Assembly (NCBI GenBank): GCA_964550345.1
Contig: CAZJYZ010000009.1
Location: 16,424-80,423, forward strand
Length of the DNA: 64,000 nucleotides
Source of the DNA: an uncultured Aliiroseovarius sp.
GTDB taxonomy: Bacteria; Pseudomonadota; Alphaproteobacteria; Rhodobacterales; Rhodobacteraceae
Direction of reading: 5' to 3'
This document shows, one piece after another, positions 15,374 to 64,000 of the stretch (position 1 is the stretch's first letter; each line of letters opens with the position of its first letter). The position numbers and the translations under genes are program-made. The notes below the pieces were generated by a model. The model saw only the letters and a list, made by a program, of their open reading frames with translations. It was not told the origin of the DNA and ran no database searches.

Positions 15374-15374
15374 A

Positions 15375-16880: not shown

Positions 16881-16889
16881 TTCTTGACC

Positions 16890-17330
16890 CTACCCCATCA
16901 TGCCTTTGGGAAAGGGTACCAACCCCAGATCCAACGCATATTTAAACAGAAGGAACAGACCAACCGACAGGCAGATACCGGCCAAGCCAGCATTTCGCAC
17001 ATTGGGGCTGATTTGATAACTTAGAATGGCCGCGGCAATGGCTGTTGGCACTAAAAACCCCAGAGGTTTCAAGGCATAAGCGTAGCCCACCAAAACGATT
17101 ACCGAGACTAAAAGCGCGCCGAAAGTGCGCAGGCCCGGCCATTCGGGTTCAGGATCCGGGCGCAGCACCATGAACATGGCGCAGATCGCTGCCACGCTGC
17201 CAATCAGGATCGGAAAGGTTTTTGGCCCAACCGGATCCGACAAAAAACTGGTCTGAATTTGCGTGGCGCTCGCGATATATGCGAGCGCCACAAGTGTCAC
17301 GACCAGACCAAAAATCCGGTCAGAAGCCAT
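16890..17330 (-). CDS. tctB: Tripartite tricarboxylate transporter small subunit TctB
   Basis: 146-aa protein with 4 transmembrane segments, lying between tctC and tctA. Confidence 0.8.
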   Translation of the reverse strand: MASDRIFGLVVTLVALAYIASATQIQTSFLSDPVGPKTFPILIGSVAAICAMFMVLRPDPEPEWPGLRTFGALLVSVIVLVGYAYALKPLGFLVPTAIAAAILSYQISPNVRNAGLAGICLSVGLFLLFKYALDLGLVPFPKGMMG

Positions 17331-18436: not shown

Positions 18437-20194
18437 TTACAAGCAAAGCTCAAGGATCAGCCCGTTGGCGCCCACCAGCAAAAGGCCTTCATGGCCCTGT
18501 TTCTGCGGCGCGGACAAGGACAGAACGTCTTTGATCGCCGCCTGTGTTGCCTTGGGAAACGGGCGCCAGTTTTCACCCTGATCGGCAGAAACCAACAAAT
18601 AGGCATCGTCGCCTGCGATCCACCCCATACCGGCCGTGGAAAAGCGGATTTTGTTCAGGTCCGCCTTTCCGGGAAATTTTTGCGCTTCCCAACTGGCACC
18701 ACCATCCCGGGTTCTGAGCAACGTACTCTGCGCGCCGACCGCCCAACCGTTCTTGTGATCGCTGAAGTAAAGGCCGTGCAAACTGGATTGTGTGCCCGAA
18801 GCCCCCTGCCCCCAGCTTTTGCCGCCATCGCGCGTCAGCAGGATCACGCCCTCTTCCCCCGCGGCCCAGCCGGTGTTTTCATCGATGAAAAAGACCGCAT
18901 GCAGGGCACCCGGGACAGCGAGCTTGCTGAGCTGCCAGCTTGCGCCGGCATCTTTGGTTGACACGATGGCCCCGCCCTCACCGGCTGCCCAACCATTGTG
19001 GGGATCGGTGAAGGACAGGGAATAAAGCGTGGTGGTTTCGGGTAGCCTTGCCTGCTGCCACCTACGCCCGAGATCTTCCGAGTAAAGCAATGCCCCCCCG
19101 GCACCTACCGCCCAGCCCCGATCTGTTTCGGGAAATACCACGTCATACAGCTTGGCACTCGTGGGGGTTTCACTGACTTCCCAATTCTCTGCCCCATCTT
19201 CACGGCGCAGCACCAGGCCATCCTCGCCAACAGCAACAATCGCACCGCCAGCACCGGCGACGCCCCAAAGCTGGTTGAGGCGCCCGGACGAGGCCTGCTC
19301 CCACTCGTCAGAAGTCTCTGTCTGCCTGATCAGTGTGCCCATCTCGCCAACCAGCCAATTGCCGCCTTCAAGCGCTACCAGCCGGTTAATATTGACGGAA
19401 GAAGGTAGCTTGACCGGAACCCAATTTGCACCACCATCCATTGTGCGCAACAAAGTACCCCCAAAGCCTGACAACAGGCCGTCGTGGTCCGATTGCCAAT
19501 GCATGTCGGTAAGGTTTCGCCCGGTTGGAAGTTGCACCTGCTGCCAATCTTTGCCGAGTTCTTCGCAGACAAAATACTGCCCCCGCTCCCCCAGGATCCA
19601 ACCCTTTTGGCCACGCCATATCAGTCGGTTGAGCGCTAACGGTGTGTCCAGCCTCTGCCCCGCCCAGTTCTCACCATCATCCGCGCTTTGCCATAGCCGC
19701 CCCGCATCACCGACTGCCATGATGTGACCATCACCGAAGTCATGTATATCGCGAATCCAGCCGCGGGTTTCAGGGCCTGTAGCATGCCAGATCTCGCCAC
19801 CATCCATTGTACGCAGACATAGCCCAAATGATCCTACAGCCCAGCCATTCTGATCGTTTTGAAAATGAAACCTGTGAATTGTCTCGTCGGTTTCAAGCCG
19901 CGCGCGTTGCCAGCTTTGCCCCGCATCGATGCTGCGAAACAACAAGCCCTGAGCTCCACCGATTAGTACACTTCCGTCGGGCAAAACCTGCAAGGCGCGC
20001 AGCTCATGCGGTGTTTCCAGCCAGCGGCGCGACCAGGTTGCGCCATTGTCATGGCTTTCCAGCAAAGTTCCCGCCTGCCCCACAGCCAACATCACCCCGC
20101 CAGGCAAGCGGCACATATCAAAAAGGTGGTTGGCTGTGGGATAGGGGTTGTGTTCAACCCAGCTGAGTTTCGCCATGTGCCTTACCCTTTGCAT
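18437..20194 (-). CDS. Ycf48-like BNR/Asp-box repeat beta-propeller protein with no signal peptide
   Basis: At least ten Asp-box-like repeats (DNGATW, DAGQSW, DGGEIW, DDGENW, DGGANW, DLGRRW, DAGASW, DGGKSW, DGGASW, DQGENW) over 585 aa. The N-terminus MQRVRHMAKLSWVEHNPYP is not hydrophobic. Confidence 0.75.
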   Translation of the reverse strand: MQRVRHMAKLSWVEHNPYPTANHLFDMCRLPGGVMLAVGQAGTLLESHDNGATWSRRWLETPHELRALQVLPDGSVLIGGAQGLLFRSIDAGQSWQRARLETDETIHRFHFQNDQNGWAVGSFGLCLRTMDGGEIWHATGPETRGWIRDIHDFGDGHIMAVGDAGRLWQSADDGENWAGQRLDTPLALNRLIWRGQKGWILGERGQYFVCEELGKDWQQVQLPTGRNLTDMHWQSDHDGLLSGFGGTLLRTMDGGANWVPVKLPSSVNINRLVALEGGNWLVGEMGTLIRQTETSDEWEQASSGRLNQLWGVAGAGGAIVAVGEDGLVLRREDGAENWEVSETPTSAKLYDVVFPETDRGWAVGAGGALLYSEDLGRRWQQARLPETTTLYSLSFTDPHNGWAAGEGGAIVSTKDAGASWQLSKLAVPGALHAVFFIDENTGWAAGEEGVILLTRDGGKSWGQGASGTQSSLHGLYFSDHKNGWAVGAQSTLLRTRDGGASWEAQKFPGKADLNKIRFSTAGMGWIAGDDAYLLVSADQGENWRPFPKATQAAIKDVLSLSAPQKQGHEGLLLVGANGLILELCL

Positions 20195-20252: not shown

Positions 20253-21464
20253 TTAATACTCAATCGGCATGACCGTTACCATGTCGCCCTCATGCACCTC
20301 ACAAGGCTCAACCGGTAGCACGATAAAGGCGTTGGCCTTAGACATTGATGTCAGAATACCCGAGTTCTGCGACCCGGTGCTGCTGATCGCCGTCTGGGCG
20401 CCGTCATAGGCAATGACGCCGCGGGCAAACTCGGCCCGGCCATGGGTTTTCAGGATCGGTTCGCCCTTGAAGGGCAGCACCATTTCCTTCAACGGTGCCG
20501 GTTTGCACCCCATCATCACCAACATTGCCGGACGTACCAGCAGCAGGAAAGTCGCCAGCACCGAAACCGGGTTTCCGGGTAGGCCAAAGAATACCGCATC
20601 GCCAATGCGACCATGGGCCTGCGGCTTGCCGGGCTTCATGCGCACCTTCCAGAAGTCGATTACACCCACCTCGGTGATCACGTCCTTGACCAGATCATAG
20701 TCGCCAACGGACACACCACCCGAGGTCAGCACCACGTCGGCCTCATTCGCGCCCTTCAGCAAGGCCGCTTTGATGCTTTCGCGGTCATCACGAATAATAC
20801 CGAGATCAAGAATATCCACGCCGAGTGCTTGCAGCACAGCCATCATCGAATGGCGGTTACTGTCATAGACCTGCCCGGCTTCTAGAGGTTGCCCGGGTGC
20901 CACGACCTCGTTTCCGGTTGAGACAACTGCAACCTTCAATTTGCGGACCACTTCGACCTCGCGCCGCCCTAAAGATGCCAGCATGCCGACGTCCGGCGGA
21001 GTCACCTGATGACCCGCGGCAAACACTTCTGACCCCTCAGAAATGTCCTGCCCGGCGCGACGTATCCATTTGCCCTGTACCTGCCCCTCAGGCACGGTTA
21101 AGGCGTCACCGTCACGCGTGACATCTTCCTGAATGACAATACAATCGCATCCATCCGGAACAGGGGCACCAGTCATGATCCGCACGGCTTCGCCAGCTCC
21201 CACAACACGCTCCAGCCGTGACCCGGCGGGCACTTCGTCCACCACATTCAGAACCGTGTCACCCTTTGCTGCCAGATCCTGAAATCGAACCGCATAGCCA
21301 TCCATGGCAGTGTTGTCATGGTTTGGAACATTTTCTGGTGCCATGACAGGTTCGGCCAACACCCGGCCAAGGGCGTTAATAACCGAGATCGTCTCTGTTT
21401 CACCAATCGGTTCAACCCGCGCCAGCGCTCTCTCATAGGCCTCGGCAAAAGGCATCATGTCCAT
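20253..21464 (-). CDS. moeA: Molybdopterin molybdotransferase MoeA
   Basis: HDNTAMDGYAV motif. 403 aa. C-terminal MoeA domains (GGVSVGDYD, GLPGNPVS). Confidence 0.9.
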   Translation of the reverse strand: MDMMPFAEAYERALARVEPIGETETISVINALGRVLAEPVMAPENVPNHDNTAMDGYAVRFQDLAAKGDTVLNVVDEVPAGSRLERVVGAGEAVRIMTGAPVPDGCDCIVIQEDVTRDGDALTVPEGQVQGKWIRRAGQDISEGSEVFAAGHQVTPPDVGMLASLGRREVEVVRKLKVAVVSTGNEVVAPGQPLEAGQVYDSNRHSMMAVLQALGVDILDLGIIRDDRESIKAALLKGANEADVVLTSGGVSVGDYDLVKDVITEVGVIDFWKVRMKPGKPQAHGRIGDAVFFGLPGNPVSVLATFLLLVRPAMLVMMGCKPAPLKEMVLPFKGEPILKTHGRAEFARGVIAYDGAQTAISSTGSQNSGILTSMSKANAFIVLPVEPCEVHEGDMVTVMPIEY

Positions 21465-21497
21465 GGTTCACTCCTCGTTCCTCTGCCCGCAAAGGGC

Positions 21498-22676
21498 TTA
21501 CTTGTCGTCCGCTTCTGGTAGCATCATTTGCTTTACTTTAATGATACCGTGTAAGCCAAGCCCAACCAGCACACCGATGCCCATATTCCCGGTGGCAATA
21601 GAAACACCGGCAATCGTCAGCGCGGTCAGAAGCTCCCACCGCTCATTAACGTCAGCGATCATCCGTGCCAATTCCAGCCCGGCAAAAAACAAAAGCACAC
21701 CTAGAACACCTTGCGGGATCAGGGTCAGGATAAAAAGCGCCTGTTCGGTAAACAAGATCGCCAGCACGATAAAAAAGACACCAATTATCAAGTTAGAGCC
21801 ACCGGTGCGTGCACCAAAGCGATACGCCGCAGCCAGCCCGCCAGCGCCGTGACAAACCGGCATGGCACCGATTGAACCTGAGACAAGCCCGGTCAGCCCC
21901 ATCGTGGTCAGCAGCGCCTTCAGAGAAACCCGCGCGCTTTTCGCCTCGCCGTATTTGGTAATGGCCACGTCGCGAGTTGAGATGATGGCATTGCCGATCG
22001 TCAGCGGGAATTGCGGCAGGACCAACAGGAAAAACGCATCCCAGTAATGGCTGAAATCCGGCGGGATCAGGACCAGTCCGGCGGTCGCTTCCTGTCCAGG
22101 CGCGCGCTCGCCCAAAGCCAGGCTGATCAGAACGCCGAAGGCCAGCAGCATGAGGGCGGCAGGAAAGCGTTTGTTTGTCAGGAAGATAAGCACAATGACA
22201 GCGCCGATAATGCCCACAAGCGGGTTCAGCCACGGCGCTGAGACCGGGCCGTTTAACAGCAACTCAGGTGCACTGATAAATTCCACCCCCTTGATCATCA
22301 GGATCAGGCCCAGGCCGAGCTGGATGCCGCGCACGATAGGTTTGGTAAACACTTTGGCGACCAGATCAATCGCCCCGGTCACAGCCAGCAAAAGTAGGAT
22401 TGCCCCTAAGATTATGCCCGAAGCGGCAATGGTTTCCACCGGCAATTGCGAGGCTATGGCTACGGCCGAAACCACTTTGAGCGGCTGCACAGGTATCGGC
22501 AAGTGATAATAAAGCCCGCCGACAACATAAAGCCCGCCGACAACCAGAAGCGTCGTGGCAAGGGGAACCGAATTAACAAGGACCAGCGCAATAGTCAGTG
22601 GCAGGAGCGTGCCCAGATCGCTGAGCGAGCCAGCCAATTCGTTGCGGTCAAAACGATGTGGTGACAATCCACTCAT
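21498..22676 (-). CDS. MOT1/MOT2-family molybdate transporter (sulfate-permease-related)
   Basis: Both motifs I recall as MOT1 signatures are present: LPIPVQPLKVVSAVAIA and GAMPVCHGAGGLAAAYRFGARTGGS. Polytopic, 392 aa. Confidence 0.8.
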   Translation of the reverse strand: MSGLSPHRFDRNELAGSLSDLGTLLPLTIALVLVNSVPLATTLLVVGGLYVVGGLYYHLPIPVQPLKVVSAVAIASQLPVETIAASGIILGAILLLLAVTGAIDLVAKVFTKPIVRGIQLGLGLILMIKGVEFISAPELLLNGPVSAPWLNPLVGIIGAVIVLIFLTNKRFPAALMLLAFGVLISLALGERAPGQEATAGLVLIPPDFSHYWDAFFLLVLPQFPLTIGNAIISTRDVAITKYGEAKSARVSLKALLTTMGLTGLVSGSIGAMPVCHGAGGLAAAYRFGARTGGSNLIIGVFFIVLAILFTEQALFILTLIPQGVLGVLLFFAGLELARMIADVNERWELLTALTIAGVSIATGNMGIGVLVGLGLHGIIKVKQMMLPEADDK

Positions 22677-22830
22677 GGGTATAACTCCTCATTTGGGAGC
22701 AAAACCCCCTCAGGCATTACTTTACCAGTTCAAACTGGTGCGAACAATTCTGCTCGGCGCGGCACTCTGTCCCATGACCCAAAGTGCGCAAAGGCACGGT
22801 AGAGCTTCCTGATCCTGGTTCCGCTCCCGC

Positions 22831-23766
22831 TCAGACCGAGATGCCCAACTCTTTCATAATCTTGTCAGCAAGTTCGTTGATGGCAATGGCAGCTTCGCTT
22901 TCGGGATTTTCGACGATGATCGACTTGCCTTCATCCGCTAGCTTTATGATCCGGCGTTCCAACGGAATGTTACCCAGGTAAGGCACATTGAGTTCATCCG
23001 CCGAGTTTTTTACCTGATTGGCACCAAACAGGTCTTCATCGGTCATGTTCTCAACCATGCCAAAGACCGGAACGTCCAGATGCCGCGCCATCGAAATTGA
23101 TTTGCGCGCATCAAGCAGCGCTACTTTCTGCGGCGTCGAGACAACGACCGCGCCGTCGATACGGTCGACAATCTCTGTCACCATCATGGGTTCGTCCCCA
23201 GTACCCGGTGGCAGGTCGAACAGCAGTATATCGCGCTCCCCCCAGTTTACCGAGGCGATCAATTGCCGGATCAGGTCCTTTTTCAAAGGTCCTTTCCACA
23301 TCACCGCATCGTCCGAGCTTTCGATGAAATAATCCATCGAGATCAGACCAAGGCCGGGGGCCTCTTCGGGCATCGGCACGACCGGTACGATACCAATCTC
23401 GTCCAGTTGCAGGCCCTTGCCCTGACGCGCAGCTTCGCTGTGCTCAGCCACCAGCATCTGTGGAATATTGGGTCCGTGAATGTCCGCATCGATTAGCGCG
23501 ACTTTCAGCCCTTTCCGCGCCAGCGCAACCGCAACGCCGGCAGTCAGGGTCGATTTTCCAACCCCGCCCTTGCCTGAGGTGATGAACAGCCGGTGACGAA
23601 TATCCTTCATACGTTCGCCAACCAACCATGTCTCGTGGTTTTCCCGGCGTGTATTCAGGCATTCCGCATAATCCGGGCAGATATCGCACCCGTTCAGACG
23701 CTCGCAGGCGGCCTCGGCAAAATCGGTCTGGCCGACATTGGTCAGGATTGGGGGCAAATCGCTCAT
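22831..23766 (-). CDS. Mrp/NBP35-family P-loop ATPase (Fe-S cluster carrier type) with an atypical cysteine layout
   Basis: Deviant Walker A SGKGGVGKST, and LPPGTGDE. All four cysteines are N-terminal (C21-x5-C27-x2-C30-x5-C36). No C-terminal CxxC. 4-nt overlap with the upstream flavoprotein gene. Confidence 0.85.
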   Translation of the reverse strand: MSDLPPILTNVGQTDFAEAACERLNGCDICPDYAECLNTRRENHETWLVGERMKDIRHRLFITSGKGGVGKSTLTAGVAVALARKGLKVALIDADIHGPNIPQMLVAEHSEAARQGKGLQLDEIGIVPVVPMPEEAPGLGLISMDYFIESSDDAVMWKGPLKKDLIRQLIASVNWGERDILLFDLPPGTGDEPMMVTEIVDRIDGAVVVSTPQKVALLDARKSISMARHLDVPVFGMVENMTDEDLFGANQVKNSADELNVPYLGNIPLERRIIKLADEGKSIIVENPESEAAIAINELADKIMKELGISV

Positions 23767-25283
23767 GACGAATAAATCTCCTGCCCACGCACGCCAACCC
23801 GTTCGGGCAGGCGCACGAAGTCATGCTGATCAAGGGCAAACAGAGCGCGGAAGGACCCAGTGCGGAAATCGCCCAGCCGGATCATCTCTTTCATTTCCTC
23901 GCTCAGCTCCTGTTTACGACGCAGAAGCGTATAGAAGATGCCATTGCCTTCCAGCCCGGCGCCTTCACGGTCCTGCGAGCGGGCAAAGGCGCTTTTGATT
24001 TCCTCAACCTGATCGTCCGGCAGGTTATAGGCGTCCAGGTTCATCTCTTCTTCGCGAATGGTGCCGATGGCAGTGAAGCCTACGGGGACATTCTTCAACA
24101 GATACATCTTCACCCAGGTGTCAGCGTTGCTCCCGATCAGGGTCTCGTCATGTTCGGCCTTGGGCGAGCCCCCGGCTGCAATCGGCAGTTCAAACACGTT
24201 CACAGCGTTGGCATCGATGCCACCTTTGTTGACAACGGGTTTGCCCGCCATGTTGAAACCGGCGATACGCCCGCCGACCACGGCGTTTGGCCAGAGCGGG
24301 ATCATACGCTGTACGCCAACAACATCGTAATGTTGCGAAAGGTCGCCGGCGGCGAAAACATCGGGGTTAGAGGTGCGCATGTTGCGGTCGACAAGAATGC
24401 CGCCACGTTCGGCCACCTCGATGTCGGTGCCGTCACACAGCCAGGTATTCGGGCGCTGGCCTGCCGAGTTGATGATCAGGTCGCATTCGATCAACCCCAG
24501 ATCGCCAACTTCAACACCCTTGAGCGAACCATCGTCATTAAATACGACTTCTTTGGCACCCTGCCCGGTGATCACCCGCATTCCACCGTGGGTTTCCATG
24601 TGCTCTTTCAGGATGGCTGAGCTGTCGTCATCGGTCATAACTGGCAGCACGTTGTCCACCAACTCGACCATTGTCACATCCACACCCCAGCCACGCAGGG
24701 TTTCGGAGGCTTCGATGCCGATCGGACCCGACCCCATAACCAGCGCCTTTTTCGAGGCACGATTCGGGTCACGCAGCTGCGCCACCACATCATCCGCGTC
24801 ACTGATGGTTTTGAAGGCATGGGCAAGACCTGCATCACGGGCATCCGCAAGACCGGGGATCGGCACCCAGAAGGTGGTTGCCCCGGCCGCAATCAACAGC
24901 TTATCCCATTCAAATTCTTCGCCATTTTCGGCGATGACTACTTTGCGTTCTGTATCAATGCTTTTGGCGGGCGTGGACAGGCGTAGATCAACATTGTTGC
25001 GCTCATAAAACTCCATCCCGCCTTTCCAGTAGAGCCCTTCGCGCGGCACACCCAGCATCTGCGGCACGCGCTCCTCAGGGTGCTTTTCCCCCCATTCCTT
25101 GCGCGCCTCGACATATTCGGGAGACTCGTTCCAACCATAAAGCGCCAGTGGGCAAGGCGAATAAGCTGGCCATTCCTCCTTATTGAGGACCGTTATGGTG
25201 CTTTCTTCGTCAAATTTACGGATCGCTTCAATAGCTTCGGCAGTTGCCGGGCCGTTGCCAATGATTACCATTTTGCTGGTCAT
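23763..25283 (-). CDS. FAD-dependent pyridine nucleotide-disulfide oxidoreductase (NADH oxidase/CoA-disulfide reductase class) with a C-terminal extension
   Basis: Two Rossmann motifs (VIIGNGPATAEA and LVMGSGPIGIEA), FAAGD, and a single N-terminal Cys in AYSPCPLALY where Nox/CoADR carry their redox Cys. About 100 extra C-terminal residues. Confidence 0.8.
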   Translation of the reverse strand: MTSKMVIIGNGPATAEAIEAIRKFDEESTITVLNKEEWPAYSPCPLALYGWNESPEYVEARKEWGEKHPEERVPQMLGVPREGLYWKGGMEFYERNNVDLRLSTPAKSIDTERKVVIAENGEEFEWDKLLIAAGATTFWVPIPGLADARDAGLAHAFKTISDADDVVAQLRDPNRASKKALVMGSGPIGIEASETLRGWGVDVTMVELVDNVLPVMTDDDSSAILKEHMETHGGMRVITGQGAKEVVFNDDGSLKGVEVGDLGLIECDLIINSAGQRPNTWLCDGTDIEVAERGGILVDRNMRTSNPDVFAAGDLSQHYDVVGVQRMIPLWPNAVVGGRIAGFNMAGKPVVNKGGIDANAVNVFELPIAAGGSPKAEHDETLIGSNADTWVKMYLLKNVPVGFTAIGTIREEEMNLDAYNLPDDQVEEIKSAFARSQDREGAGLEGNGIFYTLLRRKQELSEEMKEMIRLGDFRTGSFRALFALDQHDFVRLPERVGVRGQEIYSS

Positions 25284-25334
25284 TCAATCATCTCCCTAGT
25301 CCCTGACCCCCGAAATCCGCGGGTCAAACCAATG

Positions 25335-26276
25335 TCATTTCTTGCCCTTACCCCATGTCGAAGGGTCACCACCGACGCGAATGTCAGCAGAATCCATCAT
25401 CTGGCTGACCCATTCCTTAAAGGCTGCGCGGGCTTTCACATCACGTAACTCATCGCGAATTTCCTCGCGCACTTCGTCCAGAGGTAGCTCTGAAAGTTCT
25501 TTGTTGATTACCTGCAGCATCAGATAGCCGTCCGGCAGTTCGATGGCGCTGGTTAGCCCACCCGCCTCAAGCGAACACGCCGCGTTGAAAGCGTCGTCAT
25601 TCACTTCACCACGGCGCATCCAGCCCAGATACCCGCCATTTTCCTTGGTCGCAACACGCTCGGATTGAGCACGCGCAAGATCGGCGAAGCTTTCGCCATT
25701 CTCATGACGTTCTTTAAAGGATTTCAGCGCCCTTATCAGCCCTGAACGTCCGACCGGGCACAGCGTTTTTTCCGCCTCAAGGAAAATCTCGGCCAGTTCC
25801 AGCTTACCATCACGCACGAAACGGCCCAGACCGGGTTCGCCCGTGTGGCCGTCATAGAACTGTTCTATTTCGGTGTCCGAGACCTCTGCCTCACCCAGAA
25901 AAAGGTCGATCACATGATGGATAATCAGCTCACGCCGCATGCTTTCTTCCAGCCGCGTCTGAAAGCTCTCATCTTCGACAATATCGTCGCCACCCTGCAC
26001 CAGGATCGTTGTCTGGGCTTCGGCAACGCCCTTTTTGAGTTCGTCGTCCGAGGGCTCGACCAGTCCTGCAAGATCACTTTCAAGAATAAGTTCTTCGCGG
26101 ATCAGCTTGGTGATGGCGTTTTTCTTGAGCTCGGCCCGTTGGGATGGCACCAGATTGTCAAAAACCTGCCCGTGAACGGTAGCCGCCAGCAATTCAACTT
26201 CGCGCGTGAAAGCGCCGGCGTAAATCACATGACCATTGACGGTGGCAAGTGGCTGGCTGTCGACTTTCTCTGACAT
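25335..26276 (-). CDS. Parvulin-type peptidyl-prolyl isomerase (SurA/PpiC-like) lacking a signal peptide
   Basis: PpiC domain (ENGGYLGWMRRGEVNDDAFNAACSLEAGGLTSAIELPDGYLMLQV). The N-terminus MSEKVDSQPLATVNG is not hydrophobic. Confidence 0.75.
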   Translation of the reverse strand: MSEKVDSQPLATVNGHVIYAGAFTREVELLAATVHGQVFDNLVPSQRAELKKNAITKLIREELILESDLAGLVEPSDDELKKGVAEAQTTILVQGGDDIVEDESFQTRLEESMRRELIIHHVIDLFLGEAEVSDTEIEQFYDGHTGEPGLGRFVRDGKLELAEIFLEAEKTLCPVGRSGLIRALKSFKERHENGESFADLARAQSERVATKENGGYLGWMRRGEVNDDAFNAACSLEAGGLTSAIELPDGYLMLQVINKELSELPLDEVREEIRDELRDVKARAAFKEWVSQMMDSADIRVGGDPSTWGKGKK

Positions 26277-27307
26277 CAGTCTTTTTCACCCTCTGGCTTT
26301 TCAGTCGTAAAAAGTACTTTACGTTCATCCAGCGGCCTCGATGAATTGAAGCGGTTCGCCTCGATGGTAAAGAAACCGACCACGAGCTTGCCGATGCCGG
26401 TAACATAGCTTTGCGCCGGGCGCTTACGGCTATTTTCCTCGACCATTTCACCTACACGCAAAAAGTCATGGCCAAACCGTGTGGCCCAGGTCAACAGGTG
26501 GTTGGACAGGAACGCATCATGGCGCCGCTGGGCCATTTCTGCCGCTTCGTTGTCCCCTGTCGCGTCCGCGGCCAGCTTTCGGCCGATCAATTCGGCAATA
26601 AAGGCACATTCATGCATGATATGGTCCGCAAATTCGCCTTCTGCCTTTAGGTCGGCGGCAACGTAATCGCGGTAAACCTGCCCGGTAATATCGCCCTGCA
26701 CCTGCCGGTCGCCCATATAGATGGATTCGTAAGGTGCGACATAGGGAAAGAAGCTGTCGTAAATAATACGCGCGTATTCCTGTCGGATTTCATTGACCAG
26801 ATCATTAGGGTCCATGCCCTCAAGCCGCTCAAGATCAGCCAGACCTTCGTCGATTGCGTTGTGACCGGAAAGTGCCATTGATGCGTCGCGCAGACCTTTG
26901 ACCACAGCGCCAGTGGAAAGGCGGCCAGCCAAATCTTTAGTTGGGTTTTCAAGCAGTTCTGCCAGAGCTTCATAGATAGATTTTCGTTGCCTGTTCAACT
27001 CGGCGGCGTCATCAGCCACTGGCGTAACAACGGGATCAATCCGCACCGGTTCAATCTGGCGATGGATCATCGCGCGCACCCAGAACAGGTACGAGTAACG
27101 CTGACCTTCTGTTTTCCAGAAATCAATCACCTGCGGATCAGAATACAAGAGGTCAATCTCAGACTGTTCACGCGATGCCTGTTTTGAGGCCTCTTTCGAG
27201 ATTTCCCGCTCGCCCACCCGGTCGCTGACGCGCGTGGCTTCCGCGTCGAGACGTTCAAACTCGTCAAGCAGATCGTTTAACGTCTGACTGAGATCATTTT
27301 CTTTCAT
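26276..27307 (-). CDS. TorD/DmsD-family redox-enzyme maturation chaperone with an N-terminal extension of about 100 aa
   Basis: Core region EYARIIYDSFFPYVAPYESIYMG...ADHIMHECAFIAELI matches the TorD-family pattern (Y..lF....P.YES.Y...PDH...EL.F...L). 343 aa versus about 200 aa typical. 1-nt overlap with the PPIase gene. Confidence 0.65.
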   Translation of the reverse strand: MKENDLSQTLNDLLDEFERLDAEATRVSDRVGEREISKEASKQASREQSEIDLLYSDPQVIDFWKTEGQRYSYLFWVRAMIHRQIEPVRIDPVVTPVADDAAELNRQRKSIYEALAELLENPTKDLAGRLSTGAVVKGLRDASMALSGHNAIDEGLADLERLEGMDPNDLVNEIRQEYARIIYDSFFPYVAPYESIYMGDRQVQGDITGQVYRDYVAADLKAEGEFADHIMHECAFIAELIGRKLAADATGDNEAAEMAQRRHDAFLSNHLLTWATRFGHDFLRVGEMVEENSRKRPAQSYVTGIGKLVVGFFTIEANRFNSSRPLDERKVLFTTEKPEGEKD

Positions 27308-27374
27308 GGTTCACCCAATTGACGATGTGTGAGATAGTTTGCGGAGAAGCAGACCTCCGGTGTGATAGTCATGA

Positions 27375-27399
27375 AGACCGGGCGTTCCCGTCCCGGTCT
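27375..27399 (-). promoter_or_regulatory. Intra-operon stem-loop between the structural genes and the maturation genes
   Basis: AGACCGGG (27375-27382) pairs with CCCGGTCT (27392-27399) around a 9-nt loop. It lies 40 nt downstream of the 113-aa gene stop and has no U-tract on the minus-strand transcript. Confidence 0.3.
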
Positions 27400-27439
27400 C
27401 CAAAGTTTTCATATACTCCTGAACCAATAGGCTCAGAGC

Positions 27440-27781
27440 TTAGAAGTATGCCTTCATCTCGAAGACTTCGACACCAGTTTCCGCCACGGCAGCGCGGGCT
27501 TTCGGGCCATCTTCTTCCGCCACCCAGATGGTGCCGTGATAGGGCTCAACTGACGAAACAGCTTTGTAGATCACCTTGGCGCCAGATGCAGCAATGGCTT
27601 TATCGGCCTTCTCATAGTCACCGCTCTGGAAATCAACACGGATCGGGTCACCCCAGATAGTGCCCACATTGGCTTTGGCAAGGACTTCGTCAGGGTCCGG
27701 GATATACTGACCGCCATAAGACGCCACGCGCTCGGTCGAGGTTTTGCTTTCGTCGTAGTAAATGCTTGCTTTACCAGTCAT
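27440..27781 (-). CDS. Hypothetical 113-aa protein, candidate third (gamma) subunit of the Mo enzyme
   Basis: ORF begins 9 nt after the beta gene stop. No Cys and no hydrophobic segment. No motif I recognise. Confidence 0.55.
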   Translation of the reverse strand: MTGKASIYYDESKTSTERVASYGGQYIPDPDEVLAKANVGTIWGDPIRVDFQSGDYEKADKAIAASGAKVIYKAVSSVEPYHGTIWVAEEDGPKARAAVAETGVEVFEMKAYF

Positions 27782-27790
27782 TTTTCTCTC

Positions 27791-28441
27791 CTAGCGGGTC
27801 ACGGGCATGCCGGTCGGCAGGTGAGCCACTTCAGCATTGTGTTGTTTCGAGTAACGCTCACGGATGATCGTCGAGATCTCGTTGATATTACCAAAATAGA
27901 GGCAATGCGTGGTGCACTTAGTGGCACAGGACGGCCACAGGCCGCGGTCCACCCGGTGTACACAGTAAGAACACTTGATCACCGTTTTGGTCTGCGGATT
28001 GTATTGTGGCGCACCGAAGGGGCAACCGCCAATACAGGCCTTACAACCGATGCAGATGTCCTGATTAACGTCCACCAGACCATCAGCACGCTGGTTCATC
28101 GCACCTGTCGGGCAAACCGCCACACAGGGCGCATCCTGACAATGGAAGCACGACATCGCAACAAAAGCAGTCTTGAGCTTGCCGGCCGAAACCTTGGGCC
28201 CGATCTGCACGATCCGCATCAGACGCGGGCCTACGGGTACATCGTTTTCAAGTTTACAATGCACTTCGCAGGAATAGCAGCCAATGCAGCGATCCGCGTC
28301 GTGAAACAAGGTGTAATGCGCCGAAGGTGTCGGACCTACCGCTGGTAAAGTCCGCGCCGCATCGTGGCCAGCCACCTGAGAATACTCATTTTTGTGGCCG
28401 ATTGTGTTGGACATGAAGTCCTTGCTTGATTGCTCTCCCAT
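27791..28441 (-). CDS. 4x[4Fe-4S] ferredoxin-type electron-transfer (beta) subunit, DmsB/PsrB-like
   Basis: Four cysteine groups: CIGCYSCEVHC, CFHCQDAPCVAVCP, CIGCKACIGGCP and CSYCVHR...CATKCTTHC. 216 aa. 4 nt downstream of alpha. Confidence 0.85.
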   Translation of the reverse strand: MGEQSSKDFMSNTIGHKNEYSQVAGHDAARTLPAVGPTPSAHYTLFHDADRCIGCYSCEVHCKLENDVPVGPRLMRIVQIGPKVSAGKLKTAFVAMSCFHCQDAPCVAVCPTGAMNQRADGLVDVNQDICIGCKACIGGCPFGAPQYNPQTKTVIKCSYCVHRVDRGLWPSCATKCTTHCLYFGNINEISTIIRERYSKQHNAEVAHLPTGMPVTR

Positions 28442-28445
28442 GATC

Positions 28446-30992
28446 CTACGCAGCTCCTTTCGCAGCCTGGCGCTTGGCCAGAACTTTTTCGATCAGATTG
28501 CCGGTCTCGTATTCCTGACCGTCATAGATGACTTTGCCTTTTTCCTTGTCCCAGGTCGGCGCGCCACCTTGGGCGACACCATCCTGATACTGGCCAAATT
28601 CATAGTCTTTGACCGGGTAATCAGACATCGGGTCAACGATCGAGTGGATCATTTTGACCGCTTTTTCCTTGTCATCACCCTTCTTACGGATCGAGATCAG
28701 CTGCGCCTTGAATTCCGGCTGGTTGTAGACCGGATCCTTGACGATATCGTCGATCAGGTAACTGACGTTCCGGTTGGTGATACCAGGCACGAAGGGCTGA
28801 TATTCATCGGTTGACGCTGGCACCCAGATTTCGCGCGGGTCAGTCTCTTCGGTGACCCAGGCAAAGCTTTCGATCTCGGCGCGTTTGCTTTCCAGCACCA
28901 CGACGTCACCGTCCCGGATGCCAAGCGCATTAGCCAGACGCGGGTGGATTTGTGCAAACTTCTCGGGCTCGAGTTCGTCCGTCCATGGCCACCAGTGGCC
29001 CATTTCGTGGAACGAAGACACCAGACGACCGGTACACAGAACCAGCGGGTAATCCTTGAACTCTTCCGGAGCCGAAACGGCTGTGTGCGCCCCTTCGCGG
29101 TGTTGCGGCAGACGGTCCCAACCCAGCTCTTCAAGTGGGCGCGAGGCACATTCGATTTTGCCGGTTTCTGTCGGGAAACGCTTGTCCGAACCCGGATAGG
29201 TTTCGCCTTCTTTGTACATGATCCACTTACCGCGAATTTTGGCATCGTCCGTTTCGAACGTCATCGCCTCTTTTTCGGTCTGTGCGGGCCACATAACACC
29301 GCCCGGAGGCGTTGTTTCCGGGTCCATCGTCTCTTTGGTGATCCCGGCTGTCATCGGCTCTTGCTTGTTGAAGAATGTCACCCATGCCGGAAGGTCGGCG
29401 CGGCCGCGGCTGTCGCGGAACGGGAAGTATTCACCCAGACCAACACGGTCAGCAATGCCACAAACAACGTCCACGTCGTTACGGCATTCCCAGTTCTCAT
29501 CGATGGCTTTGTTATACCATTGGTTCAGACGGTTGTTACCGTGGTGAACCTGCCCTTCACGCTCAACCCAGGAAGTGATCGGGAAGGCAACGTGAGCGTG
29601 GTGGTATGTGAAGTTCGGGTGCCACGACATGTGGATCGCGATGTCGATATTGGCTTTCATCCCGGCCGAATACTTGTTGGTATTAGGCATCTGCGCCAGC
29701 ATGTTGCCGTTCCACCAAACCGCACGGATCGGGTAAGGCTTCTGGGTCAGGATTGCATTCGGGAAGCTTGACGCCGAAATATCCAGCCACGGCACCAGTT
29801 TATCAGTGATCGGCGGGCGTGCACCGCCACGGTTAGGCAGATCCAGCGCTTCTTCGTCGATACCGTAACCGGCAGCTGCCGCATCAATCTGGGCGTCCAG
29901 ATCTTCACGAGCGTAGCCAGCCAGATCAAGGCCGGGATTATCAGGCGGACGGCAATTGTGCAGCCAGTTCACGCCGCCACCCTCGATCCCGACATTGCCG
30001 GTGATCGCAGCCAGAAGCTGGTAGGTACGGTTGATGTTGTTGGAGTTATAGGTCTGTGCTGTCCCCAGACAGCCAGTCATCGAAGCGGGCTTGGCCATCG
30101 CAAAGGCGCGAGCGGCTTCAATGATGGTTTCTTTCGGAACCCAAGTGATACGCTCAGCGCGTTCCGGCGGCATGTCGTTGATGATCGGCATCCACTCGTC
30201 CAGACCGGCGACATTGGCCTTGATAAAGGCGTCGTCCTGCAGGCCTTCGGAAAGGATCACGTTGATCATCGCCAGAGCAAGGGCAGCGTCGGTGTTCGGA
30301 CGCAGGCGCATGGCGATATCCGCCTTGGCCATGGTCGAGTTGAAACGCGGGTCGATCACGATGATGGTCGCGCCGTTTTCCTTGGCGTTCAGCAGCCAGT
30401 TGGCTGTGGTCACCTCGGATGCGGCCATGTTTGAACCAGCAACCAGGATACATTTCGAGTTGACCCAGTCCATGGTCGGGTTGGTCAGGCGGAACAGCTC
30501 TTTCGCGCCCCATGTGTAGTTGCCGGCAATGCCCGGGCTCTCACAGCAGATCGGGCCCTGCCCCACAACGTTGGGTGTGCCCCAAAGCTTGGAAAAGCGC
30601 TTGGCGCCCATTTTCCAGTTATAGTCAGAACGGCCGGTACGGTGGATCATCAGTGCTTCGGGACCGTACTTTTCACGCACCTTCAAAAGCCGCTCGGCAG
30701 TGAAGTCCAGCGCGTCGTCCCATGATACCCGCTGGAAATCGTCATCCAGCGTTTTGCGGATCATCGGGTATTTCACCCGCAGAGGGTTATAGATGTGCTG
30801 GAATGAACCCGTACCCTTACAGCACAAGGCGCCGTAAGCGTTCGGGTTGCGTGTATCACCCATGATATCAACGACGCGGCCATCCTTGACATAAACAAGC
30901 ATACCACACGAAGATTCGCATTGGTTGTTACAGTTCGTAGCGACGACGCGGTCATAATCGCGCGTTGACTCGTCCAGTGGTCTTAACGACAT
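28446..30992 (-). CDS. Molybdopterin (Mo/W-bisPGD) oxidoreductase catalytic (alpha) subunit, DMSO-reductase superfamily; cytoplasmic, substrate unknown
   Basis: N-terminal FS0 motif NCNNQCESSCG...CCKG. Candidate Cys metal ligand in GQGPICCESPG. Molybdopterin and C-terminal dinucleotide-binding domains. The N-terminus MSLRPLDESTRDYDRVV has no twin-arginine leader. About 90 extra C-terminal residues. Confidence 0.85.
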   Translation of the reverse strand: MSLRPLDESTRDYDRVVATNCNNQCESSCGMLVYVKDGRVVDIMGDTRNPNAYGALCCKGTGSFQHIYNPLRVKYPMIRKTLDDDFQRVSWDDALDFTAERLLKVREKYGPEALMIHRTGRSDYNWKMGAKRFSKLWGTPNVVGQGPICCESPGIAGNYTWGAKELFRLTNPTMDWVNSKCILVAGSNMAASEVTTANWLLNAKENGATIIVIDPRFNSTMAKADIAMRLRPNTDAALALAMINVILSEGLQDDAFIKANVAGLDEWMPIINDMPPERAERITWVPKETIIEAARAFAMAKPASMTGCLGTAQTYNSNNINRTYQLLAAITGNVGIEGGGVNWLHNCRPPDNPGLDLAGYAREDLDAQIDAAAAGYGIDEEALDLPNRGGARPPITDKLVPWLDISASSFPNAILTQKPYPIRAVWWNGNMLAQMPNTNKYSAGMKANIDIAIHMSWHPNFTYHHAHVAFPITSWVEREGQVHHGNNRLNQWYNKAIDENWECRNDVDVVCGIADRVGLGEYFPFRDSRGRADLPAWVTFFNKQEPMTAGITKETMDPETTPPGGVMWPAQTEKEAMTFETDDAKIRGKWIMYKEGETYPGSDKRFPTETGKIECASRPLEELGWDRLPQHREGAHTAVSAPEEFKDYPLVLCTGRLVSSFHEMGHWWPWTDELEPEKFAQIHPRLANALGIRDGDVVVLESKRAEIESFAWVTEETDPREIWVPASTDEYQPFVPGITNRNVSYLIDDIVKDPVYNQPEFKAQLISIRKKGDDKEKAVKMIHSIVDPMSDYPVKDYEFGQYQDGVAQGGAPTWDKEKGKVIYDGQEYETGNLIEKVLAKRQAAKGAA

Positions 30993-31049
30993 CGGCGTTC
31001 TCCCATATTATTAGTTGCCACCGGTTTATCCGGAATTCCAAATATTGAA

Positions 31050-31083
31050 AAGTGTCAAATTCGATTTTTTGCAAGTGTCAAAT
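31050..31083 (-). promoter_or_regulatory. Direct repeat AAGTGTCAAAT x2 (23-bp register) just upstream of the alpha gene; candidate promoter or regulator site
   Basis: Identical 11-mers at 31050-31060 and 31073-31083. On the coding (minus) strand each reads ATTTGACACTT and contains TTGACA. They sit in the 102-bp gap between the 82-aa gene and alpha. Confidence 0.35.
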
Positions 31084-31094
31084 CGGCGCAGGCC

Positions 31095-31343
31095 CTATTT
31101 TTCCTGATCATTTCCATCAGGAATAGTCACCGGGTTAACCATCAGCACTAGGAAAGACTCGGCGCGCTTGATCCATTCTTCACGGTCCGGAACATAGCCA
31201 TCATTGCCTGAAAGCCGGATTAAATTGCGGTTCTCATTGACCCAATCTTTCCATTCTTCATCCGGCACGTCCCAGGCCTCGGCCTGCGCGCGGCGGATCA
31301 GCTCGACCTCTTCGGCCATGTCATCTTTAGTAAATGTGAACAT
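31095..31343 (-). CDS. Hypothetical acidic, Trp-rich 82-aa protein
   Basis: ORF lies 7 nt downstream of the MBL-fold gene on the same strand. No recognisable motif. Confidence 0.45.
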   Translation of the reverse strand: MFTFTKDDMAEEVELIRRAQAEAWDVPDEEWKDWVNENRNLIRLSGNDGYVPDREEWIKRAESFLVLMVNPVTIPDGNDQEK

Positions 31344-31350
31344 GTCTTTA

Positions 31351-32007
31351 CTAATATTTATGAGCCATGACCATCAAAGTGGTCGTTTCCGGCAGGTTAT
31401 CGGTGGTGAGTTCCAACGTGTCTGGACCCTCTTCCACCACCTCAAACAACTTAGAGAAGCTTTCTACCCCGTCAAGTGGGGCATCGATTCGGTCTGTTTT
31501 GTAGTGCATGGGAATAACGACCTTCGGCTTCAGCTGTTCGACAATTCGATACGCACCTTCGGCATCTACAGTCGAGCCACCACCGCATGGCACCAGCAGC
31601 ACATCAACCCTGCCAAGTTCGGCCAGTTGCTCATCCGTAAGCGCGTGCCCGATATCGCCCATATGCGCCACATCAAGACCATCAATACCGAAACTGAAGG
31701 CCGTGTTGTCACCACGCTCGGCCCCCTCAACCTCATCATGCCAGGTTTTGACACCGTTCACATGGATGTTTTGCACCCAGAACCTGCCATAACCGCGGAT
31801 AAATGCCGGATTGCCTGAGATGGTATTGAAACCAAAGTGCCCATCGTGCCTGTGCGACACGAAAATCGCATCACATTGCTCGCGGATTGGCAGGTAATTC
31901 AGCTCCCCGTTCCAGGCGCCCGGGATATATGGATCAAACAGCAAACGAACCAATCCGTCATTTGATTCCAAAAGAAAGGCTGAATGGCCACACCAGGTGA
32001 TTTTCAT
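31351..32007 (-). CDS. MBL-fold metallo-hydrolase (COG2220/UlaG-like)
   Basis: KITWCGHSAFLLE...LLFDPY...FVSHRHDGHF...IPMHY. The metal motif reads H-x-H-D-x-H rather than the canonical H-x-H-x-D-H. Confidence 0.7.
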   Translation of the reverse strand: MKITWCGHSAFLLESNDGLVRLLFDPYIPGAWNGELNYLPIREQCDAIFVSHRHDGHFGFNTISGNPAFIRGYGRFWVQNIHVNGVKTWHDEVEGAERGDNTAFSFGIDGLDVAHMGDIGHALTDEQLAELGRVDVLLVPCGGGSTVDAEGAYRIVEQLKPKVVIPMHYKTDRIDAPLDGVESFSKLFEVVEEGPDTLELTTDNLPETTTLMVMAHKY

Positions 32008-58783: not shown

Positions 58784-58787
58784 GTGA

Positions 58788-59570: not shown

Positions 59571-59646
59571 TATTTCTACTCCCCTGTTTTAAATGAGGCG
59601 GCCACCCGAAGGCAGCCGCCAGCAAATCGCTTCACGTGACTGGTTA

Positions 59647-60684
<1,038 letters not shown>

Positions 60685-60752
60685 TTCGTTCCTCCCATGA
60701 AACGTAAGTTTTGGCTCGCAAGCCGTTTGAGGGCGAGTCACCCTCCCTGAAC

Positions 60753-62364: not shown

Positions 62365-62368
62365 GTGA

Positions 62369-63227: not shown

Positions 63228-64000
<773 letters not shown>

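Follow-up and report, generated by a model that had tools for sequence, protein, structure and literature searches.

A soluble molybdoenzyme cassette with a predicted NAD(P) flavoprotein in an uncultured Aliiroseovarius, with a possible role in sulfur oxyanion metabolism

Introduction

The sHdr-LbpA system, reverse Dsr and the desulfonation of organosulfonates all end in sulfite, which is toxic, and the enzyme that removes it is unclear in many genomes. One enzyme of the MopB superfamily, SoeABC, oxidises sulfite on the cytoplasmic side, as cited in one paper (PMC4378227) and listed among the references of another (PMC11094781). Here we describe a gene cassette from an uncultured Aliiroseovarius sp. 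(Rhodobacteraceae) that might encode a soluble analogue of SoeABC. The genes lie on the minus strand of a 64,000-nucleotide (nt) stretch of DNA (contig CAZJYZ010000009.1 of assembly GCA_964550345.1, positions 16,424 to 80,423), hereafter called the window. The cassette is predicted to build a soluble three-subunit molybdoenzyme, the alpha complex, in which a catalytic alpha subunit would carry a molybdenum bis(pyranopterin guanine dinucleotide) cofactor (Mo-bisPGD) and one [4Fe-4S] cluster, beta would carry four [4Fe-4S] clusters and a small gamma subunit would be cofactor-less.

SoeABC, known from Allochromatium vinosum, Ruegeria pomeroyi and Aquifex aeolicus, resembles the alpha complex in having a Mo-bisPGD alpha subunit with an FS0 cluster, a four-cluster beta subunit, no twin-arginine translocation (Tat) leader and a cytoplasmic active site, and the reaction proposed for the alpha complex is identical. 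SoeABC occurs in organisms that make sulfite through Dsr, sHdr or desulfonation, as do the hosts of the alpha complex. However, SoeABC has an NrfD/PsrC-type SoeC subunit and uses quinone, whereas the alpha complex has no SoeC (an NrfD protein occurs at only 1 of 76 loci), is proposed to use NAD(P) through a flavoprotein, and has gamma as an extra subunit; the likeness is one of architecture and not of a comparison with the SoeA sequence. A paper on Sulfobacillus treats three-subunit SoeABC-like and Ttr-like operons and not an operon of the alpha type (PMC4378227).

Other described enzymes share parts of this design. Bacillus NasBC and Klebsiella NasCA also combine a soluble, Cys-ligated MopB protein with a NirB-like FAD/NAD(P)H flavoprotein, but the alpha complex adds a four-cluster beta, gamma, usually a second iron-sulfur (Fe-S) protein and a TorD-like chaperone, and differs in its sulfur-gene context. 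Formate dehydrogenases (FDHs) of the FdhF/FdsA type, some of them cytoplasmic and NAD-linked, share with alpha the fold, FS0 and the position of the ligand loop; alpha differs from them in having Glu151 for the catalytic His and His345 for the Arg, and is at most 24% identical to FDH structures (Foldseek). PsrABC and PhsABC have a Cys-ligated alpha subunit, an NrfC/DmsB-type beta subunit and sulfur substrates, but they are Tat-exported and anchored by PsrC or PhsC, and the alpha complex is neither. The acetylene hydratase of Pelobacter acetylenicus is, like alpha, cytoplasmic, Tat-less and Cys-ligated, with an acidic residue after the second FS0 Cys (Asp13, against Glu26 in alpha); in contrast, it is a monomer with no beta subunit and no redox partner, and matches alpha at 173 bits and 23% identity.

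Gene content of the block

The block is a run of 12 co-directional minus-strand genes (32007-18437), defined from a list of open reading frames (ORFs) and from profile searches, which bore out the family assignments. An initial annotation of the window, made from the letters and the ORFs without database searches, had listed these genes, and all were present where it had placed them. From the first gene on, they are (aa, amino acids):

31351..32007, minus strand: protein of the metallo-beta-lactamase (MBL) fold, 218 aa; PF13483 Lactamase_B_3, E 8e-48; first gene of the block
31095..31343, minus strand: acidic protein, 82 aa; no Pfam or NCBIfam match
28446..30992, minus strand: alpha, predicted catalytic Mo/W-bisPGD subunit, 848 aa; PF04879, PF00384 and PF01568
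27791..28441, minus strand: beta, predicted four-[4Fe-4S] electron-transfer subunit, 216 aa; Fer4_11; 16 Cys in four groups
27440..27781, minus strand: gamma, small subunit, 113 aa; hidden Markov model (HMM) of the c3 family, E 8e-35; no Pfam match; no Cys
26276..27307, minus strand: predicted TorD/NarJ-like assembly chaperone, 343 aa; PF02613 at residues 152-278, E 3.5e-17
25335..26276, minus strand: leaderless parvulin peptidyl-prolyl isomerase (PPIase), 313 aa; PF00639 / PF13616 and a SurA_N-like domain; weak NifM match
23763..25283, minus strand: FAD/NAD(P)H flavoprotein, 506 aa; PF07992 and PF00070; ferredoxin-reductase/NirB/PadH type
22831..23766, minus strand: Mrp/NBP35-type P-loop Fe-S carrier ATPase, 311 aa; PF10609, E 1.7e-74; MrpORP model, 245 bits
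21498..22676, minus strand: MOT1-family molybdate transporter, 392 aa; PF16983, E 3e-50
20253..21464, minus strand: MoeA molybdenum insertase, 403 aa; MoeA_N, MoCF_biosynth and MoeA_C
18437..20194, minus strand: Ycf48-like BNR propeller, 585 aa, no signal peptide; PF14870, E 9e-59

All ORFs of the block are intact. Intergenic spacing ranges from -4 to 154 nt, with three gaps of 102-154 nt, and start and stop codons overlap at two junctions (26276 and 23763-23766). The ATG of alpha is preceded by GGGAGAA.

Family tests and active site of alpha

Alpha has the three domains of the MopB superfamily, PF04879 (E 1.7e-12), PF00384 (1.3e-39) and PF01568 (2.5e-16), and its FS0 motif, C21-x3-C25-x3-C29-x27-C57, has four invariant Cys. 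When the curated cut-offs of NCBIfam were used, alpha lay under the cut-off of every named family. The best model was Fdh-alpha (TIGR01591), with 301 bits against a cut-off of 666, the second was NasC (219 against 1100; NasA, 91 against 1000) and the third was PhsA (206 against 694); DmsA/YnfE gave 182 bits against 778 and ArrA 113 against 1600. Among solved structures matched by sequence, HDCR FdhF was the best (212 bits), ahead of acetylene hydratase (173) and PsrA (172). The AlphaFold model of alpha had a mean predicted local distance difference test score (pLDDT) of 65.5, with active-site loops below 50, and was used for fold ranking only; in Foldseek it matched FdhH, monomeric Nap and acetylene hydratase about equally (TM-score 0.62-0.65, identity at most 24%), as expected of a generic MopB fold.

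An alignment to three FDHs placed their Sec/Cys ligand at residue 150 of alpha, the catalytic His at E151 and the catalytic Arg at H345, and both E151 and H345 (the latter within WNWLHNCRPP) are invariant in the alpha family. Across the family the ligand loop reads GQGP[IL]-C149-[C70/T3]-E-S-P-G. The initial annotation had proposed a Cys ligand in GPICCESPG, and the invariance of C149 and the alignment of residue 150 with the FDH ligand agree with this, but among the 73 orthologues that yielded the motif, 70 have Cys and 3 have Thr as residue 150. The metal-ligand loop is thus predicted to be C149-C150-E151, with either Cys as the candidate ligand. Other motifs are nearly as constant: WNWLHN[C/T]RPP has Cys (C347) in 74 of 76 alphas, HHGNNR was found in 75 of 76 and FHE[MG]GHWWPW in 71 of 76, and Glu (Glu26) directly follows the second FS0 Cys in all 70 alphas where that motif was found. 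The C-terminal tail, which had been noted as unusual, is 85 aa long and is common to the family.

By these results alpha is Cys-ligated, and its active site differs from that of FDH. An identity as FDH was rejected on the replacement of the catalytic His by Glu151 and of the catalytic Arg by His345, together with the score below the cut-off. Because the cut-offs were missed and either the catalytic residues or the Tat leader and membrane anchor of the respective families were looked for and not found, alpha falls outside Fdh and Psr/Phs/Dms; taken together, alpha is a member of none of the Fdh, Nas, Nap, Psr/Phs, Dms and Arr families.

Isolation and distribution of the alpha family

In a search of 5.8 billion proteins, the alpha family formed 23 clusters at 46-94% identity, followed by a sharp drop to 33% or less; members of the family are 46-96% identical to one another. 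In an exhaustive search of 1.84 billion representatives at 50% identity, the whole family was a single representative (1492 bits), below which lay a handful of intermediates at 500-775 bits and then a plateau near 445 bits. Most of the intermediates examined had no family active-site motifs, and one (P0137) retains a related ligand loop. Five proteins of a sister clade (P0136, P0138, P0139, P0141 and P0146; about 720-760 aa) have long stretches in common with the alpha family; they have no Cys ligand loop, HHGNNR or FHEMGHWW, and their FS0 is C-x2-C-x3-C, so that they may be a divergent or non-canonical branch. A plasmid search returned no member of the alpha family (best match, 29% identity); the two nearest plasmid matches lie in organic-catabolism contexts and have only the general MopB fold in common with alpha. 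Full-text literature searches and checks in related papers found no description of the alpha enzyme. Alpha thus appears to be a rare clade with no studied member and with an active site unlike that of any named family.

We next scanned one genome per species (185,579 genomes), which returned 79 distinct loci. The family was present in 79 of these 185,579 genomes, and every carrier was a metagenome-assembled genome (MAG) or an uncultured candidate. The carriers belong to about eight phyla and include groundwater Nitrospirota, Thermoleophilia/Gaiellales, Chloroflexota (Ardenticatenales, Anaerolineae), Altiarchaeales, Hydrothermarchaeota and other archaea, and Rhodobacteraceae/Rhodobacterales, besides a large acid-mine group of Candidatus (Ca.) Acidulodesulfobacterium/Acididesulfobacter (SZUA-79) and Bacillota including a Sulfobacillus benefaciens MAG. 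The exact alpha sequence was also found on ENA metagenome contigs. Five Rhodobacteraceae/Rhodobacterales MAGs (L013-L017) carry alphas that are 88-96% identical, and in them the block again extends from the MBL gene to that of the Ycf48-like protein. Because the Rhodobacteraceae alpha is still 64-68% identical to the versions of Nitrospirota, Thermoleophilia and Chloroflexota, the data indicate that the cassette moved by horizontal transfer and that the Rhodobacteraceae lineage acquired it in this way.

Cytoplasmic location

The initial annotation had found neither a Tat leader nor a membrane anchor, and had named an overlooked upstream start as a way in which a leader might have been missed. 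An in-frame TAA lies seven codons 5' of the ATG of alpha, so a hidden Tat leader was rejected. An RRxF-like Tat motif was found in 0 of 76 alpha N-termini, and no signal peptide was found in the proteins of the cluster, whereas TctC, encoded just downstream, has one. No NrfD, DmsC or cytochrome b gene was found in the window, and among the 76 orthologous loci only L083 encodes an NrfD protein, which has its own Fe-S partner; neither a leader nor an anchor is therefore a consistent feature of the orthologues. A hydrophobicity scan around alpha showed MOT1, a P-type ATPase and ATP-synthase subunits as the only recurrent membrane proteins, with one NarI-like protein (L026) and TauE/SafE permeases as further exceptions. 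These data suggest that the alpha complex is soluble and cytoplasmic.

Subunits, flavoprotein and maturation genes

To see which genes accompany alpha, ORFs were called at all loci and clustered, linkage was counted over 76 alpha loci, and the clusters were checked against Pfam. Beta comes after alpha at 67 loci. Fer4_11 proteins were found at the same number of loci with 126 members, that is, about two per locus, corresponding to beta and usually a second Fe-S protein, which the Rhodobacteraceae loci do not have. Against the DmsB model, beta scored 141 bits (cut-off, 214). Gamma directly follows beta at 38 loci; it has about 80 aa elsewhere and 113 aa in the window, with the motifs PIRVDY, PYH.TI.V and a C-terminal PYF. 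A word-based homologue search found only close relatives of gamma; because the HMM of the small-protein family matches the 113-aa protein at E 8e-35, this protein appears to be the conserved gamma subunit. An AlphaFold2 model of gamma from a shallow alignment has the order beta-alpha-beta-beta-alpha-beta, and its ACT-like Foldseek matches were weak and non-significant. At the Ca. Hydrothermarchaeum profundi locus (L003/L091, 20267-20608), and at archaeal loci generally, an unrelated small protein (cluster c14) occupies the slot after beta; in L003/L091 a true homologue of gamma is encoded about 8 kb off, on the opposite strand, and a split gene for a pyrrolysine-type dimethylamine methyltransferase lies beside the Mo operon.

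The flavoprotein has the Pyr_redox_2 fold (PF07992 and PF00070). Its best model was PadH (187 bits against a cut-off of 475), followed by the NirB N-terminal region (157) and CoADR (155); these and NorW (109) are all below cut-off. On the single Cys of YSPCPL it had been assigned to the Nox/CoADR class. This Cys (Cys44) is real in the window and stands at the CoADR/Nox position, but it is found only in the Rhodobacteraceae copies, which are also longer by two lineage-specific insertions. The orthologues have AY[GA]RPLISY in its place (for example AYGRPLISY), which we take to be the PYxRPxLS motif of ferredoxin-/rubredoxin-reductase-type enzymes, and a Rubredoxin_C domain is recorded for them. 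Since Cys44 is restricted to one lineage, it cannot underlie the conserved function, and with 155 bits against a cut-off of 579 for CoADR (TIGR03385), a CoADR-type flavoprotein was rejected. A sensible reading is that the flavoprotein would terminate the chain of clusters as an NAD(P)(H):Fe-S oxidoreductase, by analogy the same design principle as in the NADH-dependent assimilatory nitrate reductases.

Besides the subunits, the cassette of the window encodes helpers: the TorD-like chaperone, the parvulin, the Mrp Fe-S carrier, the MOT1 importer and MoeA. Over the 76 loci, linkage to alpha was counted for the flavoprotein (c5; 38 loci), MoeA (47), a MobA-like protein (40), a MoaA-like radical-SAM protein (31), a PTPS-like protein (30), the TorD-like protein (c9; 22), MOT1 (13, in Chloroflexota, Bacillota and archaea) and MobB (12); an HdrB-like CCG protein was linked to alpha at 35 loci. 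The TorD-like protein scored 63 bits against the PF02613 cut-off of 22 and has an N-terminal extension of about 150 aa. The co-occurrence that the initial annotation had proposed to look for holds across phyla for alpha, beta, gamma, the TorD-like protein and the flavoprotein, but not for the parvulin (c19), which is found in Rhodobacteraceae only, or for the Mrp-type ATPase, which outside Rhodobacteraceae occurs at a single archaeal locus (L066). The MBL protein (c18), confined to the window and its Rhodobacteraceae relatives and best regarded as accessory, the 82-aa protein (also at L013, L015 and L016, and unrelated to gamma) and the propeller are further Rhodobacteraceae-specific additions. 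The propeller (c28) comes after MoeA in L013, L015, L016 and L017 and is the last gene of the block conserved in Rhodobacteraceae; it does follow the cluster, as had been noted, although the same-strand run of the window goes on 3' of it with TctCBA and an AtuA-like gene.

The block recurs in five other Rhodobacteraceae species and its core in about 70 more loci; the alpha-beta-gamma-(Fe-S)-flavoprotein-cofactor arrangement is not due to chance. The self-contained maturation kit, likewise, appears to be a general property of the family and no local accident. The core of the initial annotation, a soluble Mo-bisPGD enzyme that lacks a Tat leader and an anchor, is coupled to an NAD(P)H flavoprotein, comes with maturation genes and has no counterpart among characterised systems, was borne out by these linkage counts, by the lack of Tat motifs and of recurrent anchors, by the scores below every NCBIfam cut-off and the identity of at most 24% to solved structures, and no characterised clade with the same accessory genes was found to take in alpha.

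Several smaller observations concern the accessory genes. The parvulin, with its weak NifM match, is encoded two genes 5' of the Mrp/NBP35 P-loop Fe-S ATPase, and NifM is a PPIase that matures the P-loop Fe-S protein NifH. The ATPase itself has no usual C-terminal CxxC and carries an N-terminal C-x5-C-x2-C-x5-C instead. In the acid-mine group (L038-L090), genes for MoeA, a short MoaA-like protein, a PTPS-like protein (PF01242) and a long MobA-like protein lie about 3-6 kb 3' of alpha (for example, L049 14-17 kb). The PTPS-like gene occupies the slot where MoaC would be expected and may point to an unusual route to cyclic pyranopterin monophosphate. A VWA-domain protein of about 750-800 aa (L001 13718-16039; also L022, L025, L031, L033, L061 and L063) is encoded between gamma and the TorD-like gene in Nitrospirota and nearby in Hydrothermarchaeota; it may be an assembly or metal-insertion factor.

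Sulfur genes beside alpha in other phyla

At the Nitrospirota locus L001, genes for adenylate kinase, Sat, AprB, AprA, QmoA, QmoB and a soluble HdrC-like protein stand directly 5' of alpha in the same direction; the order continues with alpha, beta, gamma, the VWA protein, TorD, Fer4_11, the flavoprotein and a cytochrome c, and TusA follows on the opposite strand. Qmo or Apr genes also lie beside alpha at L018, L020, L023, L024, L035 and L083. A different arrangement was found in Ardenticatenaceae and Anaerolineales (L006/L032 and L034), where a type II-like sHdr set shares the strand of alpha and leads into alpha or MOT1-alpha; it consists of genes for CCG proteins, an HdrA-like protein, EtfAB, two or three LbpA, LplA-like ligases and radical-SAM lipoate enzymes. 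In the acid-mine group, a gene for an HdrB-like protein with two CCG domains opens the operon immediately 5' of alpha at 34 loci. In addition, beta and TorD are separated in the operon of L030 (Ardenticatenales) by genes for an HdrD-like protein and a TauE/SafE permease, and a TauE/SafE permease is also found in the archaeal operon L066, next to MOT1, and nearby in L079. Rieske/cytochrome b and ATP-synthase genes upstream in the acid-mine group were set aside as housekeeping neighbours, a judgement read from the sequences without a profile search.

Systems of the sHdr type are reported for SZUA-79, Bacillota/Sulfobacillus, Chloroflexota and Actinomycetota, and the host phyla of alpha overlap these sHdr-carrying phyla (PMC11094781). 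Because such sulfur genes make up a tiny fraction of a genome and yet stand beside alpha in three independent arrangements, a chance association is unlikely, with related genomes not counting as independent samples. The initial annotation had taken the CoADR-like flavoprotein and the Cys-ligated alpha as hints of sulfur, persulfide or oxyanion chemistry; a link to sulfur is supported, but on other grounds, namely the neighbourhoods in other phyla.

Proposed function and alternative explanations

That the cassette encodes a soluble Mo enzyme wired to an NAD(P) flavoprotein is very probable. Electrons would pass, to judge from the architecture, between Mo, FS0, the beta clusters (and in most other lineages the second Fer4_11 protein), FAD and NAD(P)(H), so that a two-electron oxo-transfer in the cytoplasm would be coupled to the pyridine-nucleotide pool and not to quinone. 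The substrate would be an inorganic sulfur oxyanion, as the neighbourhoods in other phyla suggest, and the most likely reaction would be the oxidation of sulfite to sulfate with reduction of NAD(P)+. As a whole, the reading that we tentatively prefer, a soluble NAD(P)-linked sulfur-oxyanion oxidoreductase that is most likely a sulfite dehydrogenase, has somewhat less than an even chance of being right, and sulfite specifically as the substrate is possible but doubtful. Sulfite fits because sHdr-LbpA, rDsr and desulfonation all release it in the cytoplasm, because SoeABC, a MopB enzyme with the same cytoplasmic orientation, already oxidises it with quinone, and because TauE-type anion exporters are linked to alpha. 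The reaction is also feasible with NAD(P)+, since the sulfate/sulfite couple is low enough (E0' about -516 mV, against -320 mV for NAD+/NADH). The complex would then be a SoeC-less, soluble functional analogue of SoeABC that clears cytoplasmic sulfite arising from sHdr-LbpA, rDsr or desulfonation, and in the heterotrophic Rhodobacteraceae it would clear sulfite from organosulfonate or persulfide metabolism.

Several points weigh against this reading. Substrate and catalytic direction are suggested by gene neighbourhood alone, and no sulfur gene was found within 10 kb in the window and its five Rhodobacteraceae relatives; at the archaeal loci (Hydrothermarchaeota), only cofactor genes lie nearby. 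No named SoeA was among the 120 best alpha matches listed. Beside Sat-AprBA, a second route of sulfite oxidation would be partly redundant, and the genes could work reductively. Through the CCG protein, electrons could take an additional or alternative path, towards a disulfide or the membrane surface, so that NAD(P) is perhaps not the sole partner, and in Rhodobacteraceae, where the second Fer4_11 protein is absent, the reading presumes that beta and the flavoprotein are in contact. The alpha model, finally, is of low confidence (pLDDT 65.5), above all near the active site.

The same soluble complex might instead run reductively, as an NAD(P)H-dependent cytoplasmic reductase of zero-valent sulfur or polysulfide, thiosulfate or tetrathionate; lacking an anchor, it would then carry out a reaction of the Psr/Phs/Sre/Ttr kind, which could serve sulfur disproportionation, detoxification or the feeding of sulfide or sulfite into Dsr/Apr. 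The sulfur-gene neighbourhoods are identical under this explanation, which is unlikely but draws on more: PhsA is the third-best NCBIfam model and PsrA is among the matched structures (172 bits), persulfide chemistry would be consistent with the adjacent C149 and C150 and with C347, which is nearly invariant, sulfate reduction is reported or suspected for several hosts (SZUA-79, Nitrospirota), and SoeABC of Aquifex was first described as a sulfur/tetrathionate reductase. However, the PhsA score of 206 is far from the cut-off of 694, NAD(P)H, at -320 mV, would have to pass electrons uphill to thiosulfate (about -402 mV), tetrathionate and polysulfide occur mainly outside the cytoplasm whereas the alpha enzyme is cytoplasmic, and linkage to the oxidative sHdr-LbpA set and to TauE-type exporters suits sulfite removal better. 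We consider it quite improbable that the enzyme is an NAD(P)H-dependent cytoplasmic reductase of a non-sulfur oxyanion (nitrate in the NasC/NasB design, chlorate, selenate, tellurate or arsenate), with the sulfur genes as coincidental or only regulatory neighbours. A soluble Cys-ligated MopB protein with a NirB-like NAD(P)H flavoprotein is the design of the NADH-dependent assimilatory nitrate reductase, only Fdh-alpha scores higher than NasC among the NCBIfam models, monomeric Nap ranks high among the structural matches, and the Rhodobacteraceae and archaeal loci have no sulfur genes nearby. But the NasC score (219) is a small part of the cut-off of 1100, assimilatory Nas has no four-cluster beta, gamma or TorD-like chaperone, and the three independent sulfur arrangements are unlikely to be due to chance; nor was a nitrite reductase, a nitrate transporter or an arsenic or selenium resistance gene found among the recurrent families at the 76 loci, where the rarer neighbours are mostly unannotated.

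An organic substrate (a CoA ester, an organosulfonate or an aromatic acid) is suggested by the surroundings of the block in the window, which are genes for heterotrophic transport and sugar or acid catabolism. A tripartite tricarboxylate transporter (TTT; TctCBA) and the AtuA-like gene follow on the same strand, and a CoA-transferase/crotonase/aldehyde dehydrogenase operon diverges upstream; the enzyme would then be a hydroxylase, dehydrogenase or hydratase, as in acetylene hydratase, transhydroxylase or PadBCD, with its substrate imported by TctCBA or handled by the divergent operon. Consistent with this, acetylene hydratase is among the top sequence and structural matches, PadH is the best model of the flavoprotein, and the invariant Glu after the second FS0 Cys stands at the position of acetylene hydratase Asp13, which we take to be the residue directly after the second FS0 Cys of that enzyme. 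The similarities are low, though (173 bits for acetylene hydratase; 187 against 475 for PadH), a hydratase needs no redox wire to NAD(P), and many hosts are of the lithotroph type (acid-mine SZUA-79, Hydrothermarchaeota, Altiarchaeales, groundwater Nitrospirota), with no recurrent organic-catabolism family there. The divergent operon is not kept beside the cluster even in relatives with 88-96% identical alphas; the CoA-ester substrate that the initial annotation had left open is therefore without support, the link to this operon was rejected, and the organic explanation as a whole is very improbable. Hardly credible is the view that the Mo enzyme, the flavoprotein and the maturation genes form no functional unit and are unrelated neighbours or a decaying island: the three gaps of 102-154 nt could hold separate promoters and the promoter/terminator scan was uninformative, but the ORFs are all intact, codons overlap at 26276 and 23763-23766, the order is kept in five more Rhodobacteraceae species and the core set across about eight phyla.

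If the complex is indeed a sulfite dehydrogenase, the gap in sulfite removal would be filled, and the energy bookkeeping of lithoautotrophic sulfur oxidisers would change, in that those using sHdr-LbpA or rDsr would obtain NAD(P)H directly, without reverse electron flow; a self-sufficient mobile cassette would also have been carried into heterotrophs such as Rhodobacteraceae. That the family as a whole is a soluble NAD(P)+-reducing sulfite dehydrogenase, and thus a third route of cytoplasmic sulfite oxidation alongside SoeABC and AprBA/Sat, one that is independent of quinone, is somewhat unlikely. Whatever the substrate, the family appears to be a distinct Mo-bisPGD clade with its own signature (C-C-E, H-N-C-R, HHGNNR, FHEMGHWWPW), a new gamma subunit and an unusually complete travelling maturation kit that has spread horizontally over bacteria and archaea. 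The Mo-bisPGD superfamily is known; the clade and the subunit architecture, alpha-beta-gamma with an NAD(P) module, are new. The host lineage of the Rhodobacteraceae version has genetically tractable relatives, which makes experiments practicable.

Other features of the window

A candidate regulatory site lies between the 82-aa gene and alpha:

31045..31058, no strand assigned: FNR/CRP-like box TTGACACTTTTCAA, about 55 nt 5' of the alpha start; one mismatch to TTGAY-N4-RTCAA

The box is contained in a direct repeat, GATTTGACACTT, present in two copies at 31040-31075, and a TGAC.CTATCAA-like box is partly conserved at the five orthologous Rhodobacteraceae loci. Patterns of the TTGAY-N4-RTCAA type occurred across the window at chance level (8 found against 7.6 expected), and the box is a weak candidate. 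A promoter/terminator scan gave counts at chance level, and Rfam, searched over the whole window and in a permissive scan of the cluster, returned no Moco riboswitch and no other RNA family.

Downstream of the propeller, the window encodes TctC, TctB and TctA of the tripartite tricarboxylate-type transporter and the AtuA-like protein at 14012-18298; related loci stop at the propeller, and these genes are candidate members of the cassette. Farther away, a PALP-family pyridoxal phosphate enzyme of 344 aa (53219-54253) adjoins a duplicated set of TRAP transporter genes; CuyA and other sulfo-lyases belong to the PALP family, and an enzyme of that kind would supply sulfite in the cytoplasm. The TRAP set (DctM, 482 aa; DctQ, 260 aa; DctP, 364 aa) occurs twice in tandem, at 57335-60741 and 60916-63998, with identical pattern matches 3581 bp apart (58610/62191 and 58743/62324), a pattern that suggests a recent tandem duplication of about 3.6 kb, extending beyond the end of the window.

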